Shown: one piece after another, positions 6,979-45,650 of the stretch
Position numbering within the stretch: the first letter of the stretch is position 1
How the letters are laid out: each line of letters begins with the position of its first letter
Position numbers and translations under genes: made by a program
Notes under the pieces: generated by a model
The model's database searches: none
Told to the model about the DNA's origin: nothing
What the model saw: only the letters and a program-made list of their open reading frames with translations
From: Escherichia phage ETEP102
Strand: one strand, 5' to 3'
Sequence record: OR979723.1
Length of the DNA: 48,422 nt

Positions 6979-7053
6979 GCTCCGCTAGCTCAATTGGATA
7001 GCAGCAACGACCTTCTAAGTCGTATGTTACTGGTTCGAATCCAGTGCAGAGCG
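6979..7053 (+). tRNA. tRNA-Arg (anticodon TCT), encoded CCA follows at 7054-7056
   Basis: Hand-folded cloverleaf: acceptor 6979-6985/7046-7052 (one C-A mismatch), D-loop with GG, anticodon stem 7007-7011/7019-7023, loop CTTCTAA, T-loop TTCGAAT. Confidence 0.75.
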
Positions 7054-7060
7054 CCAATTT

Positions 7061-7357: not shown

Positions 7358-7578
7358 TGCTGACGTTTGTTTATGGTTTCTTGTTCGCTTCCGTCCTTAT
7401 CGTTTCGATGTCGTGCGCTTGGGATTCTCGGATTGTTAAGCGCGGGTTTCTTGCTCAGGCGCGATACGATGAGAAGAAAAAAGAGTGGCGCGTAGCCTGC
7501 AAGTTCATCTCAGTATTCAAAGAGATCGACGACATCCGATCGGGGCGGAAGCCTGGGGCCATAAAATACGTTGACTGA
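7357..7578 (+). CDS. putative membrane protein (73 aa)
   Basis: Hydrophobic N-terminus FVYGFLFASVLIVSMS; TAATG overlap. Confidence 0.4.
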   Translation: MLTFVYGFLFASVLIVSMSCAWDSRIVKRGFLAQARYDEKKKEWRVACKFISVFKEIDDIRSGRKPGAIKYVD

Positions 7579-7584
7579 TTTATT

Positions 7585-7609
7585 AAGCATCCTTCGGGTT
7601 GCTTTTTTT
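7585..7609 (+). terminator. rho-independent terminator
   Basis: AAGCATCC-TTCG-GGTTGCTT then TTTTTTT. Confidence 0.6.
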
Positions 7610-7621
7610 ATGCCTGCAATC

Positions 7622-7630
7622 TGGTATAAT
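7622..7630 (+). promoter_or_regulatory. extended -10 promoter element TGGTATAAT
   Basis: TGnTATAAT about 30 nt upstream of ATG 7660 with AGAGGA RBS. Confidence 0.45.
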
Positions 7631-7659
7631 TCCTTCCTATTCAACAAGAGGATGAAACC

Positions 7660-8178
7660 ATGAAAGATGAAAACTTCACCAGCGCCGCTCAAGAGAAGGT
7701 GCGTATTGGCAACTTCAAGGAGCTGTACAATAAAAAGTATGGCGACATCGCCAACCTGAGCCATCGTCACCCAATGACGCCTGAAACTGTATTCAATCTT
7801 GCGGTTAAATATTTCTCATGGGCTGAGAGTCAGGCCATTAAGGCGATTGAAACAGCAAGTTTTCAAGGCGTAGTTACTGAGAACCTCGTGCATAAGCATC
7901 GCATTTTCACTTTAAACGGATTCTGCCTGTACTGCGGAGTTACAGCAAGCTCAATCCAGAGCTGGCGCGCATCACCTGGATTTGCTGAGGTCGTTGAGTT
8001 CATTGACGCTGTAATACATGAGCAAAAATATCAGCTCGCCGCTTCCAACCTCATCAACGCCGGATTCGTAGGTAAAGAGATCGGAATCGACAAGGCCGCT
8101 GAGGTCAACGTAAGCAATGTAGTGAATGACACTCAAACGATTGAGGATGCCGTGAAAAGCGTACTTGATAAGATTTGA
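7660..8178 (+). CDS. putative terminase small subunit
   Basis: 172-aa ORF at head of packaging module, upstream of large terminase; call by position only. Confidence 0.45.
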   Translation: MKDENFTSAAQEKVRIGNFKELYNKKYGDIANLSHRHPMTPETVFNLAVKYFSWAESQAIKAIETASFQGVVTENLVHKHRIFTLNGFCLYCGVTASSIQSWRASPGFAEVVEFIDAVIHEQKYQLAASNLINAGFVGKEIGIDKAAEVNVSNVVNDTQTIEDAVKSVLDKI

Positions 8179-8235: not shown

Positions 8236-8748
8236 ATGATTAATGCAAAGCAGTTGCCAGACCTATCAATTCTAAACCATATATTTGATTATGATCCTGA
8301 GAGCGGCGTGCTTTACTGGAAGAACCCAACCAGTAAGAGGGTGAGGCCTGGCCGTGAGGCTGGAACGCTGCATAAACCAAGTGGAAGGTTACAGGTTCAA
8401 ATATCAGGTAGCATCTACAAAGTATCAAGAGTTGTGTTTTACATGCACTACGGAAGGCAACCAGAAGGAGTTGTTGACCATGTTGATCACAACACTCTGA
8501 ACAACAGGCCTGATAATTTAAGGGATGCCACGATGAGTCAGAACGGAATGAATAAATCAATGCAGTCAAATAATACATCTGGATATAAAGGCGTTAGCTT
8601 CCATAAAGGCAGGGGTGAGTTTATAGCTTACGCAAAAGTTGACGGAAAGATGGTGTTTGGTGGGTGGCATAAATCAGCGATAGACGCCGCTTACTCAGCA
8701 GCAAATCTAAGAGAAAAATTGCACGGAGAATTTGTACATCATGGCTAA
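8236..8748 (+). CDS. HNH homing endonuclease
   Basis: VVDHVDHNTLNNRPDNLR HNH core; YKGVSF...FIAYAKVDGK AP2-like tail; inserted between terminase genes. Confidence 0.8.
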   Translation: MINAKQLPDLSILNHIFDYDPESGVLYWKNPTSKRVRPGREAGTLHKPSGRLQVQISGSIYKVSRVVFYMHYGRQPEGVVDHVDHNTLNNRPDNLRDATMSQNGMNKSMQSNNTSGYKGVSFHKGRGEFIAYAKVDGKMVFGGWHKSAIDAAYSAANLREKLHGEFVHHG

Positions 8749-10321
8749 CAAAATATTGATTTGGGAAGAATTGACGCAAAGGGAAAAGTCGGTAGTGAAG
8801 GTGATGAGCGAAAGGTCTTTTAGTGATTTTATGCGCATATGGTTCGCTTTGATACAGGCTCAAAAGTTTAGGTCTAATTGGCACTTCAACTACCTTTGCT
8901 GGAAGGTTGAGCAGATAATCAACGGTGAGATACAAAACATCATATTCAACATTACCCCAGGCTCTGGCAAGACTGAGATCTTCTCCATTCACATGCCAGT
9001 GTATTGCATGTTCAGGAGCGAGAAGATAAGGAATCTTAACCTCTCATTCTCTGATAGTCTCGTTAAGGATAACGGGATCAGGACGCGTGAGATTATCGGG
9101 TCTGATGAGTTCCAGGAGCTTTGGCCATGCAAACTAGCAAAGGCTTCAGGTGGTGACATTACCGCTCTAAACTCAAAGGAAAAGGCATGGTTAACTCTAA
9201 CTTCACGTGCGATCGGTGGTCAGGTAACTGGTAAGCGTGGCGGTTATATGGATGATGGCTTCACCGGAATGCTGACGCTTGATGACCCTGAGAAGCCGAA
9301 AGACCTATACTCAGCAGTAAAGAGAAAGGCTGGTCACACGCTGCTAAAGAACACCGTTCGATCGCGAAGAATGAATGACAAGACACCATGCGTTGTTGTT
9401 CAGCAGCGACTACACGTAAACGATGCGACGTGGTTCCTGATGAATGGCGGCATGGGTGGGATGGAGTTTGAGCAGGTAATCATTCCGGCTCTGGTAACTG
9501 AGGAATACAGAGACACGCTTCCTGACTGGTTGAAAGAAGAGTTTGACCGCGACGTTTTATCGTCAGAGCCTGTTGAGATTGATGGTGTTAAGCATTATTC
9601 ATTCTGGCCTGCAAAAGAAAGCGCGCAAAGTTTACTGGCGTTACGCGAAGCTGACCTGTACACCTTCGAGTCTCAGTATCAGCAAAAGCCTATCGCGCTC
9701 GGTGGTAACGCATTCAAATCGGAATGGTTCCAGTATTACGGCGATGGTGAGAAAGCCAGCATGCCAAAACCTGAACGATTCGAGTACCTTTTCACCACTG
9801 CGGATACAGCTCAAAAGGCTGAGGAGATACACGACTACAGCGTATTTGTTTTGTGGGGTAAGTATAAGGATCGCATTTATTTCATTGATGGCATACGCGG
9901 AAAGTGGGAAGCTCCAGAGCTTGAGAAGATGGCATTGAACTTTTACGGTAATTGTTTCAAGTGGGCCAAGGAGAATCGGGTGTCACTTCGCAGGGTTTAC
10001 ATTGAAGACAAGGCAAGCGGAACGGGCCTGATCCAGTCAATCAATAAGAAGCTGCCTATTGACATTACGCCAGTTCAGCGAGATACAGATAAGGTTACTC
10101 GCGCAATGGATGCGGCACCAATCATGAAGGCAGGGCGGATCGTGTTTCCAGAATCACATCCAATGCTTACCGACATGGAGGCGGAACTCATTGGGTTCAC
10201 ATTTGACGATAGCCATCCTCACGATGACATCGTGGATAACGTGGTTGACGCTGGCAACTTCGAAATGAACTTGCTTGACGATCCTGTAGCGAGAATGAAG
10301 CGACTGGCGGGACTTAAATAA
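8741..10321 (+). CDS. terminase large subunit
   Basis: Walker A-like ITPGSGKTEIFS; 527 aa; ATG 8741 (track start TTG 8732). Confidence 0.8.
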   Translation: MANKILIWEELTQREKSVVKVMSERSFSDFMRIWFALIQAQKFRSNWHFNYLCWKVEQIINGEIQNIIFNITPGSGKTEIFSIHMPVYCMFRSEKIRNLNLSFSDSLVKDNGIRTREIIGSDEFQELWPCKLAKASGGDITALNSKEKAWLTLTSRAIGGQVTGKRGGYMDDGFTGMLTLDDPEKPKDLYSAVKRKAGHTLLKNTVRSRRMNDKTPCVVVQQRLHVNDATWFLMNGGMGGMEFEQVIIPALVTEEYRDTLPDWLKEEFDRDVLSSEPVEIDGVKHYSFWPAKESAQSLLALREADLYTFESQYQQKPIALGGNAFKSEWFQYYGDGEKASMPKPERFEYLFTTADTAQKAEEIHDYSVFVLWGKYKDRIYFIDGIRGKWEAPELEKMALNFYGNCFKWAKENRVSLRRVYIEDKASGTGLIQSINKKLPIDITPVQRDTDKVTRAMDAAPIMKAGRIVFPESHPMLTDMEAELIGFTFDDSHPHDDIVDNVVDAGNFEMNLLDDPVARMKRLAGLK

Positions 10322-35172: not shown

Positions 35173-37275
35173 ATGGCTATGCGCATTAAATCCATCAAAA
35201 AACAGATAGAGGAACTCGGTCCTCAGAAGATAAAAGAAATTCAGGATAAGTTTACCTTTGGTGACATGGTTCCGTATGAGTACCAGTGCGTGATGTATGA
35301 TGAGATCGGCAAGCGCATTGCTCGCTATAAGCATCCATTCATTGTTAAGGCTTCCGTATCTGCTGGTAAAACAATTGGCTTTGCCATGATCGCGTCTCGA
35401 GTTAAAGAGATGGGACTTTCAATGATGATACTTGCGCGCCAGGGCGACATCGTCGCTCAGGATAGCGAGGAGATCTCAAACTTCGGCGTTCCAAACTCTG
35501 TTTACTGTGCTGGCCTGAATACAAAATCCGCATACTTCCCTATAGTTGTAGGATCGGAAGGTTCAGTGGCGAACGGTCTATTCAAGGCTCTGGGTGACTT
35601 TACTCCAATGGTGCTGGGTATTGATGAATGTCACCAGGTAGACTGGGAAGACCTTGCTGCAGCCATCGGCAATGAAGAAACGATTGAGATGATGCTAACT
35701 GAAAAGGATGAGCGAGTATTCATTGATTACCCTAAAAATCGCGATGGTTATGTCAATGGTTATCTTAATGGCGTAGAGGTTGGCGCCCAGGTAATGGATA
35801 AGCAATTGCTAATCAGCCGGAAGACTGGCGAGCCTGTGTTGGGAACAAAGCGAAGCCAATACACGATCATAATCACTGAGCTAATGAGGCGCTGCAAAGA
35901 GAAGAATGGCAAGGAATTAAGGATATTCGGGATGACTGGTTCTGAGTTCAGAGGAACAGCTCCAATCGTAGTTGACAACCCAAAGCTACCTGGATTCTGG
36001 CGTGAGCAGGTGACTAATATTGACACAAATTACCTTATTGAGTTCGGATCTGTGGTTCCGACTGTTTTTGGTAGTGTCGGTGATGCTGGTTATGATCTTG
36101 ATGAGTTCAAGGCATCAAGTCAGGACGGCACGGCTGACTTCAGCCAGAAAGATATGAAGGCGATGGAAAAGAAAATCCATGACAACGCCAGCATGACCAA
36201 GCGAATCATGGAAATGGTTGTTGAGGAGGCAAAGAAGCGAAACGGGGTTCTTATTACATGCTCAGGGCAGCGCCACTGCAAAGAGGCAGCGAGCTATCTG
36301 CCACCTGACGCCACCTATGAGATCATCACCGAGAAGACAAACACCAAAAAGCGACAAGCAATACTGGAAGCGGCTAACCGTGGTGAAATTAAATACATTT
36401 TCCAGGTTATAGCGCTAACTACTGGAGTTAACGTTCCGTTTTGGGATTTCTCAGTCATCCTGCGTAAGATTGGTTCTCTTACACTACTGATCCAGCTTCT
36501 CGGTCGCGGAATGCGATTGCTTAAACCGTGGCAAAAAGCAATGGGTATGGTTAAGGAAGATCACCTTGTGTGGGATTTCGCGGGTTGCATGGACGAGTTA
36601 GGTCAGTTATACTTTGACCCCATCCTTGAGGAATCACAGTATCAGCGCCGCTTTGACGGTAAGAAAGAACCGAAGAAATGTGAGTTGTGCGGAACTGAGA
36701 ACAGTTTTTACGCTCGCCGTTGCATTCACAGAGACGAAAACGGCAATCGTTGTGAGTATTTCTGGAAGTCTCGCGTATGTGAAGACCAGATTGATGATCG
36801 CACTGGCGAAGTGCTCGCTAAGGGTTGCGGAACTGAGAATGACGTAGTTGCTAGAATATGCCGCTGCTGTGACGTGAGCTTGAAAGACCCCAATGACAAT
36901 CTGACTGGTAAGGCTTACACAAAAAACGACTGGTGCACAGTTAATAGCTTTGAAGTGACGCTGACGAGAAATCAGACTGGTATTCTTTATCGTTACGACC
37001 TTACCGACTCGATGGGGGTTAACTTCATTGCTTATGAAAAATTTTTCCCTCAATCAACGGCGCAGGTATGCCACACGATATGGAAACAAAAAGGTGTATT
37101 GCCTCATGTGCATGACAGCAAGATCGCAAAGTTAATGGCAGCTTACAGAAGTGCGAAAATGATTTTAAACAACGCTCACCACATAGCACATCCGGTGCGG
37201 GTAACACACCGAAAAAATGCAAAAGGTGATGATATTATTTCACGTAAAGATTTCGGATTGGATGGTAACTTATGA
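35173..37275 (+). CDS. SF2 DEAD/DEAH-box helicase with C-terminal Cys-rich domain
   Basis: Walker A SAGKT, Walker B GIDECHQ, C-terminal CELCG...CIHRD...CRCC cysteine clusters. Confidence 0.75.
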   Translation: MAMRIKSIKKQIEELGPQKIKEIQDKFTFGDMVPYEYQCVMYDEIGKRIARYKHPFIVKASVSAGKTIGFAMIASRVKEMGLSMMILARQGDIVAQDSEEISNFGVPNSVYCAGLNTKSAYFPIVVGSEGSVANGLFKALGDFTPMVLGIDECHQVDWEDLAAAIGNEETIEMMLTEKDERVFIDYPKNRDGYVNGYLNGVEVGAQVMDKQLLISRKTGEPVLGTKRSQYTIIITELMRRCKEKNGKELRIFGMTGSEFRGTAPIVVDNPKLPGFWREQVTNIDTNYLIEFGSVVPTVFGSVGDAGYDLDEFKASSQDGTADFSQKDMKAMEKKIHDNASMTKRIMEMVVEEAKKRNGVLITCSGQRHCKEAASYLPPDATYEIITEKTNTKKRQAILEAANRGEIKYIFQVIALTTGVNVPFWDFSVILRKIGSLTLLIQLLGRGMRLLKPWQKAMGMVKEDHLVWDFAGCMDELGQLYFDPILEESQYQRRFDGKKEPKKCELCGTENSFYARRCIHRDENGNRCEYFWKSRVCEDQIDDRTGEVLAKGCGTENDVVARICRCCDVSLKDPNDNLTGKAYTKNDWCTVNSFEVTLTRNQTGILYRYDLTDSMGVNFIAYEKFFPQSTAQVCHTIWKQKGVLPHVHDSKIAKLMAAYRSAKMILNNAHHIAHPVRVTHRKNAKGDDIISRKDFGLDGNL

Positions 37276-37769
37276 TTATAAACTTTGTCGAATACAAAGA
37301 TGGTGGGCTCTACTGGACTAAACCGTCAGGGCCAAGGGCTAGAGTTAGCATTGGATCAAGGGTAGGTCACGTAAATCGTGAAGGCTACAGGGTATTCAAG
37401 TTCGAAGGCGCTCACCTAAAGGAGCATAGGGTGATATGGTATATACATAATGGTGAAATACCAGAAGGGATGGAGGTTGATCACATAAATCACGAAAGGG
37501 ATGATAATAGAATTTCAAACTTAAGACTAGTTAGCAGATCCGACAACATGAAAAATACATCAATAAGAAAGTCGAATAGTAGCGGATTTACTGGTGTTAG
37601 TTGGTGCTCAACCAGTAAAAAGTGGAAGGCTCAGATACAAGTAAACGGAAAGAAAATATCGTTAGGTTACTTTAGTGATATTGATTTAGCTATAAGTGCA
37701 AGAACCGAGGCGAATATTAAATATAACTTCCACGACAATCATGGTGGCAAAAATGGCTATAAAAGATAA
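37272..37769 (+). CDS. HNH homing endonuclease
   Basis: EVDHINHERDDNRISNLR core and TGVSW...WKAQIQVNGK tail, paralogous to 8236-8748; ATGA overlap with helicase stop. Confidence 0.8.
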   Translation: MIINFVEYKDGGLYWTKPSGPRARVSIGSRVGHVNREGYRVFKFEGAHLKEHRVIWYIHNGEIPEGMEVDHINHERDDNRISNLRLVSRSDNMKNTSIRKSNSSGFTGVSWCSTSKKWKAQIQVNGKKISLGYFSDIDLAISARTEANIKYNFHDNHGGKNGYKR

Positions 37770-43095: not shown

Positions 43096-43288
43096 ATCCA
43101 AATATTTGCACAGGCAGCAACAATTCACCTTCATTATTGCATAGAGTATGCTCATCACGTCGTCCGGCGCGCATGGATGAGTTAAGCATTGAAGGAAGGG
43201 CTTGGTTAAGCCAGTCCTCACTGATACCATTCTCAGAACTGCATCTGATTATCGCGTCGATTACGACCTGGCTTTCCGAATAACTCAT
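43094..43288 (-). CDS. possible overlapping small ORF (64 aa)
   Basis: ORF in track overlapping the last 56 nt of upstream gene in another frame; weak RBS. Confidence 0.2.
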   Translation of the reverse strand: MSYSESQVVIDAIIRCSSENGISEDWLNQALPSMLNSSMRAGRRDEHTLCNNEGELLLPVQIFG

Positions 43289-43607
43289 TATCGCTCATCT
43301 TCTCTATGTTCATCATCTCACATGTATAGCGATCACTCTCACCGCCATAGCACCTGAAATGAAATTCAAACGGCCTTTTTTGCGCCCCTTTGGACCAGTA
43401 CCAGTTATTAACGCCGTCTAGGTATCCCTCACCCATACACCTTGCTATGAACTCCTTTGATGATGATGAGGCGAAGTAGCGAGGCGTAACTCCAGCAGAC
43501 TTTGCCAGTCGTTCGCACTCCCTATGCTTGTATATGAATACCGCCAGGTGCTGACGGTTGAATTTTTCATAGCCTTCGCAAAAACGGTACAGATCCAGAA
43601 GAAACAT
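43233..43607 (-). CDS. hypothetical protein (124 aa)
   Basis: ORF starting 2 nt after the HNH stop. Confidence 0.45.
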   Translation of the reverse strand: MFLLDLYRFCEGYEKFNRQHLAVFIYKHRECERLAKSAGVTPRYFASSSSKEFIARCMGEGYLDGVNNWYWSKGAQKRPFEFHFRCYGGESDRYTCEMMNIEKMSDNELFGKPGRNRRDNQMQF

Positions 43608-43609
43608 GA

Positions 43610-44134
43610 TTAGCGCCCGTGGTTATGGTGGAATTTAAGCCTTGCCCTAGCATCAATCACGGCCTGGCAGGCATCATCAAACAGGTAAAAAGTTCCTAGT
43701 GCAATTCTTTTACCGCTCAGGGATATTCTGGCCTTGAACTTCCCGTTCTTTTCAATCGTAACGCCAGGGAATCCGCTGGTGTTATTCTTATATACACTTT
43801 TGTTTTTTGAGTTATCTTGAGCCGATACAAGCCTGAGATTTACTCGTCTATTATCCATTCTATTATGATTTATGTGGTCAATCTGCATCCCCTTCGGTAT
43901 TTCACCCTCTCAAATATTCCATATTACAACGTGATTTGTCAGCCTCTTACCACCATAATCGAAACGCCTATAGCCACCTCTTGACTTATTGCCGCAATAG
44001 TTACCTTCTATCGCGGTTGGGTTTATTGTCCTAAGCCAGACTAAATCAATACCATCATAACCAATGTCAGGATAGCAATCGTGGGTTAACATATACCTTG
44101 TCTCCAATTGTGCAGGTGTAATATTTCTCATCAA
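43610..44134 (-). pseudogene. HNH homing endonuclease interrupted by in-frame TGA (43910-43912)
   Basis: Track ORFs 43910-44134 and 43610-43888 are in the same frame; joined reading ...HVVIWNI-stop-EGEIPKGMQIDHINHNRMDNRRVNLR matches intact paralog ...HRVIWYIHNGEIPEGMEVDHINHERDDNRISNLR. Confidence 0.6.
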
Positions 44135-45650
44135 GCATTGGCAGTAAGTGATCTTTAATCTTTGTCATTATCCCGGCCTGAGATTCGAATGGCTTAACCT
44201 TACGCGCCGCTTCATATAGGGATCGGACACCTACAACGCCTTTCCCGTTCTTGCCTTGCTTGATCAGGATGTCAATCAGCTTGTTCATCTCAGCATGGTC
44301 GCCAGCATGACCAGCAGCGTTTGCAGATGACAGATAAGTCTTACTCAGTTCCTGGAACATAATTACCGCTTCCTGCATTGTGTCAAGCTCAATCTCTCTG
44401 GACTTCTGCGGACTCCCGCCATTGGGATTAAACCAGTTACGCACAGTGTGAAGAACAGCAGCAATCCTGATGGCCTGCTTATCGAACTTACCCAACGCGC
44501 CGCGCAACATTGTGTGTGAATACTTCCCGCCGTCCGCAAGGTGAGGCTCCATATCCTGACGCGCACGGTTGAGATATTTCATCGCCGACGTGCTCACTGT
44601 CAGGTTGACTTCGTGTTCGCTCATGATCTCATGGACCAGACGGAAGTAGTCCGCCTTGAGTCCGCCATCAATCGGCTCGTATGTTGATTCGCCTTTTTCG
44701 TCAACGAATACACGCTCGCCAAGGAATGACTTCTCACGCACAAGCAAGAAACGTTCTGACACACCGATACCACGCGCACCAGCATTCATGATCGCGTTGA
44801 TTGTTTCATCCTGTGCAATTACAGAGATGCAACCCATCGCAATAAAGCTCATGTTATTGTCTGCGTTCGCACGCGCGATAGATACGTTACCAGCATCCCA
44901 TGCTTTCAGCACAAGCTCGCTGTTCGTTTTCTTTGAACCGTCACCATAGGTCATGCCTAAAAGTGAGTTCACGCTCGTCGCTTCATCCGAGATCACAGAG
45001 AAGTTGCCCTGGCGGTTGTTGATTCTCGCAAGACCTTCCGGCGTGGTGTCTGATACGGGGAACACGATGTCACAAAGGCGTTCCAGTTTTTCTTCCAGTT
45101 CTTCTTTTTCCTCAAACAGCGCCGCCATGTCAGATGGTGATTTCTCCTGCTTCATCTCCTTGGATAGAGCGGAAAGCTTAGCCATAATCTTCTTGCGGTC
45201 ACGCCTTCGGATCTCGTTGAGTCGCTCAGTCTCGGCGATCATCGGGGCCAGTGAAAGTGAGTTGATAGCTGATTTACCCGTCGATGGTGGCTGACTGGTT
45301 ACGACGTACAGCGCGGTAGGCTGTTGTGTTCCGTGATACTCAACCGTAAATCGTCCAAGCATCGCAGCAGAGATACATCCCAGGAAGTGCATATAAGCAG
45401 ATGACTCGGGGAACTGGACTGAGCGAGCAGCGTTGCTCGATAGTTTACCAACGACATCATGATCGTTTCCCAGGGAGATGACGGGATATTTGTCACCGCC
45501 TGAGTCAATCTCTGTAGGAGCTTTCCAGAATGACTGGCTCTGCCTGTATCCGTTGGCATTGATGGCGACGCGCAGAGGCGGGAGGTTATCGGCGGCGGCG
45601 ACAGCCATAACCTGATCAATTGACAATTTATCTTCGTTGAAATCAAACAT
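44067..45650 (-). CDS. P-loop ATPase, putative replicative primase-helicase C-terminal-type (DUF3987-like)
   Basis: Walker A-like SQPPSTGKSA; 527 aa; AAGGAG RBS; family name from recollection only. Confidence 0.5.
   Translation of the reverse strand: MFDFNEDKLSIDQVMAVAAADNLPPLRVAINANGYRQSQSFWKAPTEIDSGGDKYPVISLGNDHDVVGKLSSNAARSVQFPESSAYMHFLGCISAAMLGRFTVEYHGTQQPTALYVVTSQPPSTGKSAINSLSLAPMIAETERLNEIRRRDRKKIMAKLSALSKEMKQEKSPSDMAALFEEKEELEEKLERLCDIVFPVSDTTPEGLARINNRQGNFSVISDEATSVNSLLGMTYGDGSKKTNSELVLKAWDAGNVSIARANADNNMSFIAMGCISVIAQDETINAIMNAGARGIGVSERFLLVREKSFLGERVFVDEKGESTYEPIDGGLKADYFRLVHEIMSEHEVNLTVSTSAMKYLNRARQDMEPHLADGGKYSHTMLRGALGKFDKQAIRIAAVLHTVRNWFNPNGGSPQKSREIELDTMQEAVIMFQELSKTYLSSANAAGHAGDHAEMNKLIDILIKQGKNGKGVVGVRSLYEAARKVKPFESQAGIMTKIKDHLLPMLDEKYYTCTIGDKVYVNPRLLS

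Follow-up and report, generated by a model that had tools for sequence, protein, structure and literature searches.

A probably recent nonsense mutation in a free-standing HNH–AP2-type homing endonuclease gene of Escherichia phage ETEP102

Free-standing homing endonucleases that combine HNH and AP2 domains have been described from phages, cyanobacteria and protists (Magnani, Sjolander and Hake 2004, as cited in PMC10448857), and the 'IPA-HNH' genes of vibriophage ICP1 have been reported as well (PMC10448857). Nuclease genes sit at boundaries of genetic exchange, and one split HNH–AP2 homing gene, ICP1 gp115–gp116, was attributed to a frameshift (PMC10448857). In such proteins an N-terminal HNH nuclease is followed by a C-terminal AP2-like DNA-binding domain, and the genes are small, free-standing and located between conserved phage genes, with variable presence at an exchange boundary. 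I-HmuI from Bacillus phage SPO1 (1u3e) has an N-terminal beta region, a beta-beta-alpha-metal core and a DNA-binding tail; it is intron-encoded and ends in a helix-turn-helix rather than an AP2 domain. In the Goddard–Burt cycle, homing genes are expected to degenerate once fixed. In the coliphage Qbeta, the UGA of the coat-protein gene is read through to produce A1; in that phage the stop codon is conserved and A1 is essential.

Escherichia phage ETEP102 (Drexlerviridae) has been placed in Nouzillyvirus. The window analysed here was its complete genome (OR979723.1, 48,422 bp), which had approximately 86% nucleotide identity to phages TH21, P817 and CJ19 across the arm containing the locus (Table 1). 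A mechanical ORF list contained two ORFs in the same frame, 43910–44134 (TTG start) and 43610–43888, and the preliminary description had interpreted them as one HNH homing endonuclease gene interrupted by a single TGA. The minus-strand translation bore this out: it ran as one continuous frame, MLTHDCYPD...NHVVIWNI-TGA-EGEIPKGMQIDHINHN...HNHGR-TAA, with seven sense codons (EGEIPKG) between the TGA and the ATG at 43888, after which the sequence continued MQIDHINHN.... The upstream boundary had to be corrected. Since all relatives begin with MLTH or MSTL and the deposited product has 60 aa, the true start is almost certainly the ATG at 44092 and not the TTG at 44134, and the gene therefore spans 43610–44092. 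Its first 26 nt overlapped the 3' end of the helicase gene, and the ATG and a GGAG/AAGG purine tract sat within the final 26–40 nt of that gene. The two pieces and both neighbouring proteins had exact matches among the ETEP102 entries, and the public record lists both pieces as separate proteins. In the text of PMC11267873, 'HNH' does not occur, 'homing' occurs once, in a figure legend, and the two pieces are not discussed.

Table 1. Features of the ETEP102 genome referred to in the text.
Feature	Coordinates	Strand	Remarks
HNH_3 + AP2-like homing endonuclease, complete frame	43610..44092	-	483 nt, 160 sense codons + TAA
In-frame TGA, codon 61	43910..43912	-	Sole interruption of the 160-codon frame
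N-terminal piece, 60 codons	43913..44092	-	UniRef A0AAU6PXZ4 'uncharacterized protein'
C-terminal ORF, 92 aa	43610..43888	-	Opens at internal Met69; UniRef A0AAU6PY00 'HNH homing endonuclease'
DUF3987 'helicase' gene	44067..45650	-	Directly upstream; Pfam DUF3987 E=4e-39
Downstream gene, 124 aa, phrog_2794 (unknown function)	43233..43607	-	ATG 2 nt after the endonuclease TAA
HNH_3 paralog, 165 aa, intact	37272..37769	+	Weak AP2 match (E=0.0012); His at the stop position
HNH_3 paralog, 170 aa, intact, more distant	8236..8748	+	Identified by profile and alignment
tRNA-Arg, anticodon TCT	6979-7056	+	Sole tRNA gene; one tRNA-Arg also in PMC11267873

The Pfam profile HNH_3 (PF13392; curated gathering threshold 24.8 bits) matched the read-through product with 55.5 bits at residues 54–95 and thus straddled the stop at residue 61. 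The C-terminal piece alone scored 34 bits, and the N-terminal piece alone gave no match to this profile. The phrog_99 family 'HNH endonuclease' was matched with E=8e-49, and in tblastn residues 1–160 of an intact protein, encoded on the relative contig L012, aligned to 44092–43613 as one ungapped segment (98.1% identity, E=3e-107). An uninterrupted ORF would be expected for an HNH_3 or His-Me finger homing endonuclease, and this frame has a TGA at codon 61; the ETEP102 copy is a member of the HNH_3 family by descent, in the form of a disrupted (pseudo)gene.

The fold was examined with an AlphaFold model of the intact relative P0003 from the family alignment (alignment A5; mean pLDDT 81.7). In this model, residues 10–52 formed a confident beta region, followed by a helix (53–61) of which residue 61 was the last. 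The core consisted of strand 69–73 (MQVDH; beta1), strand 86–90 and helix 91–105, corresponding to a beta-beta-alpha-metal arrangement, and residues ~108–152 formed a three-stranded sheet and a helix resembling an AP2 DNA-binding domain. D72, H73, N81, R82, N85, L86, R87, N94 and N97 were invariant in the alignment and present in ETEP102, and the beta-beta-alpha-metal motif (D-H ... N ... N) was kept, with D72-H73, N85 and N94 all in the C-terminal piece. The 60-codon N-terminal piece comprised the beta-sheet region and the helix 53–61 of the model up to the stop, without any catalytic residue. Because the entire catalytic core lies after codon 61, the stop strips everything catalytic from the primary translation product. 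Residue 61 itself was V, H, F, Y or L in the wider family, and Cys was not conserved there.

The first Foldseek match in the PDB was I-HmuI (1u3e; E=5.8e-4, probability 1.00, 161 aligned columns), which shares the order of N-terminal beta region, beta-beta-alpha-metal core and DNA-binding tail. Identity to I-HmuI was 20%, and the global superposition was poor (TM 0.36, rmsd 12.7 Å), as expected for an extended multi-domain protein. Residues ~105–152 superposed on the AP2 domain of TEM1 (7et5) with an rmsd of 1.9 Å over 52 columns, and the C-terminal part superposed on 7et4_A (0.7 Å over 46 columns) and also on AtERF1 (1gcc); these AP2/ERF domains are from plants. A Pfam search of the ETEP102 endonuclease for AP2 gave no match, and the AP2 matches of a phmmer search of the PDB were non-significant (E=0.36–0.8). 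The predicted architecture of HNH plus AP2 was therefore apparent at the level of the modelled fold, with a weak signal at the sequence level. Together, the HNH_3 profile, the fold search and phrog_99 upheld the assignment to the HNH homing endonucleases made in the preliminary description.

Both halves of the gene were under purifying selection across the family (dN/dS 0.04–0.14). Between ETEP102 and the relative L003, dN/dS was 0.05 for codons 1–60 and 0.04 for codons 62–160; between ETEP102 and the ortholog in phage Phagiculus, it was 0.12 for the whole gene. Selection thus acts on the full-length protein as the functional unit. Alignment of the read-through product along its whole length with two intact paralogs in the same genome had also been proposed. 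This held for the paralog at 37272–37769, which aligned with residues 17–159 (48% identity, E=3e-42), but for the paralog at 8236–8748 only residues 56–152 aligned (36% identity, E=2e-16); both alignments crossed the stop. With these two intact genes, the genome thus contains three homing-type genes, one of which is broken. The paralog at 37272–37769 directly follows a 700-aa ORF (35173–37275), and the one at 8236–8748 directly precedes a 529-aa ORF (8732–10321), each with an overlap of a few bases; both neighbours are large conserved genes.

Relatives of the gene carried a sense codon at position 61. A cluster at 90% identity that included both ETEP102 pieces had 30 members. Among the 13 listed besides the two pieces, 12 were uninterrupted proteins of 160 aa and one (P0009) had 94 aa; residue 61 in these 13, P0009 included, was Cys in 12 and Phe in one. 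P0009, from a 49,571-bp contig, ended ...LVSAQDN at residue 94, either through a separate disruption of this gene or because the contig end cuts it. At the nucleotide level, codon 61 was TTC (Phe) in L003 and GTA (Val) in Phagiculus. The closest comparison was provided by L012, a 49,420-bp Logan contig from SRR29999940 found through a shared holin protein, which read ATT TGC GAG (Cys) where ETEP102 reads ATT TGA GAG. Over the gene the two were 97.7% identical, with 11 differences in 483 nt: the stop, eight synonymous and two nonsynonymous changes. The first 392 nt contained just two of these, the stop and a change in codon 71 (Ile/Val), and the N-terminal 60 codons were 100% identical in nucleotide sequence. 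Compared with the TGC of L012, the stop arose when the third base of the Cys codon changed from C to A, equivalent to G-to-T at position 43910 of the + strand.

The other nine differences between ETEP102 and L012 clustered in nt 393–450, and beyond the gene the sequences diverged sharply (43610–43700 versus L012 7444–7534), which suggests a recombination breakpoint within the AP2-coding part. The FYLFDD version of ETEP102 was shared with the cluster members P0006 and P0011.

Products identical to the 60-aa or the 92-aa piece were on record in no other assembly. Exact-pattern scans for the neighbourhood of codon 61, with NNN at the codon, gave no match in IMG/VR, JGI metagenomes or GTDB genomes, and a protein-based scan of IMG/VR for the gene gave no match either. 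Megablast produced no match in complete E. coli genomes and matched only the flanks in phage records, in which a more sensitive blastn detected the Phagiculus gene only (73%). As far as these data go, the stop appears private to the ETEP102 isolate. Since the rest of the gene is undecayed, the nonsense event is very recent. The best reading of the locus, with a probability of about 0.8, is a dispensable free-standing HNH–AP2 homing endonuclease gene that has very recently acquired a real nonsense mutation (TGC to TGA). A recent nonsense mutation was among the explanations offered in the preliminary description, which had pointed to orthologs as the comparison to make, and it is strongly favoured by the intact relatives of at least 90% identity, the lack of further damage and the uniqueness of the stop allele.

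It is unlikely that the TGA results from an error in sequencing or assembly or from a variant that does not represent the phage population, i.e., that the population really has TGC and the record holds a wrong base or the allele of a sub-population from laboratory propagation. The stop allele differs from the intact relatives by a single base and is not on record elsewhere, and the change on the + strand is of the G-to-T type; library damage is known to produce artefactual changes of this type on one strand. Such damage, however, occurs at low allele fractions, and the codon-61 site lies outside any homopolymer or repeat. The genome was assembled de novo from MiSeq 2x250 reads of Nextera XT libraries, with a consensus at a coverage of at least 30-fold (PMC11267873), and at such depth a substitution error makes it into the consensus practically never.

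We find it very improbable that the TGA is a tolerated or selected attenuator that supplies a dose of a few percent through Trp readthrough and/or a 92-aa HNH+AP2 fragment made by re-initiation. If it were, some homing or DNA-binding function would be kept while nuclease toxicity is avoided. Still less credence is given to each of the two routes when taken as a reading of its own. In the first, the TGA would be a selected leaky stop that throttles a potentially harmful nuclease, with readthrough by Trp-tRNA on the model of A1 in Qbeta. Of the stop codons, UGA leaks most in E. coli: in K-12 reporters, Trp-tRNA reads through it at a rate of ~2% (37 °C) or ~4% (25 °C) (PMC10570021). Position 61 is variable and accepts the aromatic residues F, H and Y (alignment A5), so a product with Trp should fold, and the remainder of the gene is undamaged. 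An undamaged remainder, however, is equally expected after a very recent mutation. The stop was also not conserved among relatives, as it would be in programmed readthrough, but unique to ETEP102, with Cys (TGC), Phe (TTC) or Val (GTA) in its place. Since the first 392 nt matched the TGC-bearing L012 except for the stop and one base of codon 71, nothing had co-evolved with the stop. Folding of 76 nt at and after the TGA, compared with 200 shuffles, revealed no stimulatory RNA structure or stable hairpin 3' of the stop: the minimum free energy was -4.1 kcal/mol, whereas the shuffles had a mean of -7.4 kcal/mol (z = +1.5), and 195 of the 200 shuffles folded at least as well as the native sequence. 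Readthrough to a low level of full-length nuclease, as the preliminary description had envisaged, therefore survives at most as a passive background leak, the stop being unconserved and accompanied by neither a structure nor a suppressor tRNA. The UGA can, as in Qbeta, occasionally be read by the Trp-tRNA of E. coli, but unlike the Qbeta stop it is unique to one isolate and lies in a dispensable gene.

Other forms of recoding were rejected. Structure-driven readthrough was dismissed on the basis of the weaker-than-shuffled fold and of an Rfam search around the stop, which matched no family. Selenocysteine insertion was an attractive candidate since the ancestral residue is Cys, but there was no SECIS-like hairpin and Cys was unconserved in the wider family. 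Reassignment of TGA or a suppressor tRNA of the phage was discounted because TGA terminates 14 of 68 non-overlapping ORFs, among them the genes on either side, and the only tRNA was Arg-TCT.

The second route, a functional split gene in which the 92-aa C-terminal ORF is re-initiated at Met69 and acts alone, as a DNA-binding protein or a minimal nuclease, or reassembles with the 60-aa N-terminal piece, is as hard to credit as the selected leaky stop. The C-terminal piece begins exactly at core strand beta1, keeps D72-H73, N85, N94 and the whole AP2-like domain, and exceeds the HNH_3 threshold (34 versus 24.8 bits); its ATG lies 21 nt past the stop and is preceded by GAAGGGG. This purine-rich stretch, however, abuts the ATG, and a spacing of about 0–2 nt is poor for a Shine-Dalgarno site. 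Intact relatives shared Met69 and the bases upstream of it, which means that the piece had gained no new start signal; a new promoter or start for this piece was likewise rejected, since promoter-like matches were at chance level. The N-terminal 60 residues, moreover, were conserved (dN/dS 0.05 versus L003) and modelled with a pLDDT of around 90 as an integral part of the fold, and their loss should therefore matter.

The endonuclease gene was absent from the closest relatives in Nouzillyvirus (TH21, P817, CJ19, ESCO41, XT34 and others). In the gene-less relatives, a 1001-bp query around the gene matched by megablast as two pieces that together spanned 545 bp. In ESCO41, the ATG of the downstream 124-aa ORF followed 3 nt after the helicase stop, compared with 459 nt in ETEP102, and the endonuclease gene thus represents an insertion of ~456 nt between the helicase gene and the next gene. 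Among ten contigs anchored by the holin, one carried this gene, eight had no such insertion and the remaining one had another HNH gene in its place. The genomes were otherwise collinear, and presence and absence of the gene were polymorphic at one precise site.

The helicase gene was a mosaic around this site. Compared with the gene-less CJ19, P817 and ESCO41, identity was 89–90% in its first 400 nt and 93–98% in nt 400–1434, falling to 65–75% in the last 150 nt. Compared with the gene-carrying L012, it was 88–95% in the bulk of the gene and 97–100% in the last 150 nt. The flanks of the endonuclease gene were 79–91% identical between ETEP102 and L012, versus 97.7% for the gene itself. A helicase 3' tract of ~150 nt (about 44067–44216) therefore travels with the endonuclease gene, as in co-conversion. 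All 12 alleles without this gene, L009 included, contained ...TGCCTGATTGGTGATAAA(A/G)TTTA(C/T)AT(T/C)AATCC..., encoding YTCLIGDK(I/V)YINPRLLG, and the gene-less helicase 3' ends all shared TGCCTGATTGGTGATAAA-TTTACATTAATCC. The gene-less junction in CJ19 and ESCO41 spanned ...TGCCTGATTGGTGATAAAATTTACATTAATCCGCGACTGCTGGGGTAAATTATG.... The gene-carrying alleles had ...TGCACAAT(T/A)GGAGA(C/G)AA(G/A)(G/A)T(A/T)TATGT(T/C)AACCC..., encoding YTCTIG(D/E)K(V/I)YVNPRLLS. Judged from sequence, these patterns are the classic footprints of homing with co-conversion, and of nuclease genes placed at exchange boundaries (PMC10448857). The putative target site would be the helicase 3' end or the junction in gene-less alleles; endonuclease activity, target site and homing are all predicted from family membership and sequence mosaicism.

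The T1-like contig L009 (ENA ERZ28620904 scaffold_360) contained, at 7404–7934 on the minus strand, a different HNH_3 gene of 176 aa (MNWHEYFYYKDGKL...) in the same gap, and the junction therefore looks like an independently invaded hot spot. The downstream phrog_2794 gene ('YdbL' in UniRef) encoded 124 aa in ETEP102, ESCO41 and XT34, but its annotated or predicted length was only 67 aa in CJ19 and in many metagenomic contigs. The DNA just past the helicase stop nevertheless looked alike in CJ19 and P817, which suggests that the start site is assigned differently or that the gene is disrupted further in.

In its domain order, small size, free-standing position between conserved genes and variable presence, the ETEP102 gene resembles the known HNH–AP2 homing genes, from which it differs by the premature TGA and by an AP2 domain seen by fold and not by Pfam. 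An ortholog occupies the same site in the distant phage Phagiculus (WWD11038.1; OR896821 22401–22883). This protein has 160 aa and is 68% identical to that of ETEP102, and its gene likewise overlaps the 3' end of a DUF3987 helicase gene and is followed by the same downstream gene family. In contrast to the ETEP102 copy, it is intact, with Val at codon 61, and the genome belongs to another subfamily, Rogunavirinae.

Four Hanrivervirus phages, BEK7 (MN158209; L016 577–1221), BEK1-23, BEC3 and BEK12B, carried an HNH–AP2 gene that was frameshifted between its HNH and AP2 parts and located near the same 527-aa helicase gene. This gene was annotated as 'homing endonuclease' plus 'hypothetical protein', and the frameshift represents either another decayed copy or a homopolymer sequencing error. 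In ETEP102, in ICP1 gp115–gp116 and in the BEK7-type gene, a single lesion has in each case led to the annotation of an HNH–AP2 gene as a pair of neighbouring ORFs. The lesions in ICP1 and the BEK7-type gene are frameshifts that part HNH from AP2, whereas that of ETEP102 is an in-frame nonsense substitution inside HNH_3. Split HNH–AP2 homing genes have thus been described already, and the ETEP102 gene, which holds nothing surprising to specialists, is a further damaged example of a well-known kind. Its state is in keeping with the phase of degeneration in the life cycle of homing genes.

The following history would account for the locus. An intact nuclease would cut gene-less alleles at or near the helicase 3' end or the junction, and repair from a gene-carrying genome during co-infection would copy in the gene together with ~150 nt of helicase flank. 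In ETEP102, one C-to-A transversion turned codon 61 from TGC (Cys) into TGA. The main product would now be the N-terminal fragment of 60 aa, which lacks catalytic residues. At most a few percent of ribosomes may insert Trp at the UGA by ordinary near-cognate decoding and complete the full-length protein. This protein would probably be active, given that homologs have F, H, Y, V or L at position 61, and some re-initiation could also take place at Met69. No sign appears that either readthrough or re-initiation has been selected for. Because basal readthrough of UGA is ~2–4% and a single stop alone is no proof of lost function, the stop allele is probably leaky rather than null.

The TGA at codon 61 is an ordinary first step in the decay of a selfish gene and not a special decoding mechanism. 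For annotation, the deposited 60-aa and 92-aa ORFs make up a single disrupted gene and should be marked accordingly. The locus is of some use for studying homing in T1-like phages, because its junction holds at least two different HNH genes and a clear travelling tract. With one lesion and a near-identical intact allele in another phage, it shows cleanly, in a natural isolate, how the decay of a homing gene begins.
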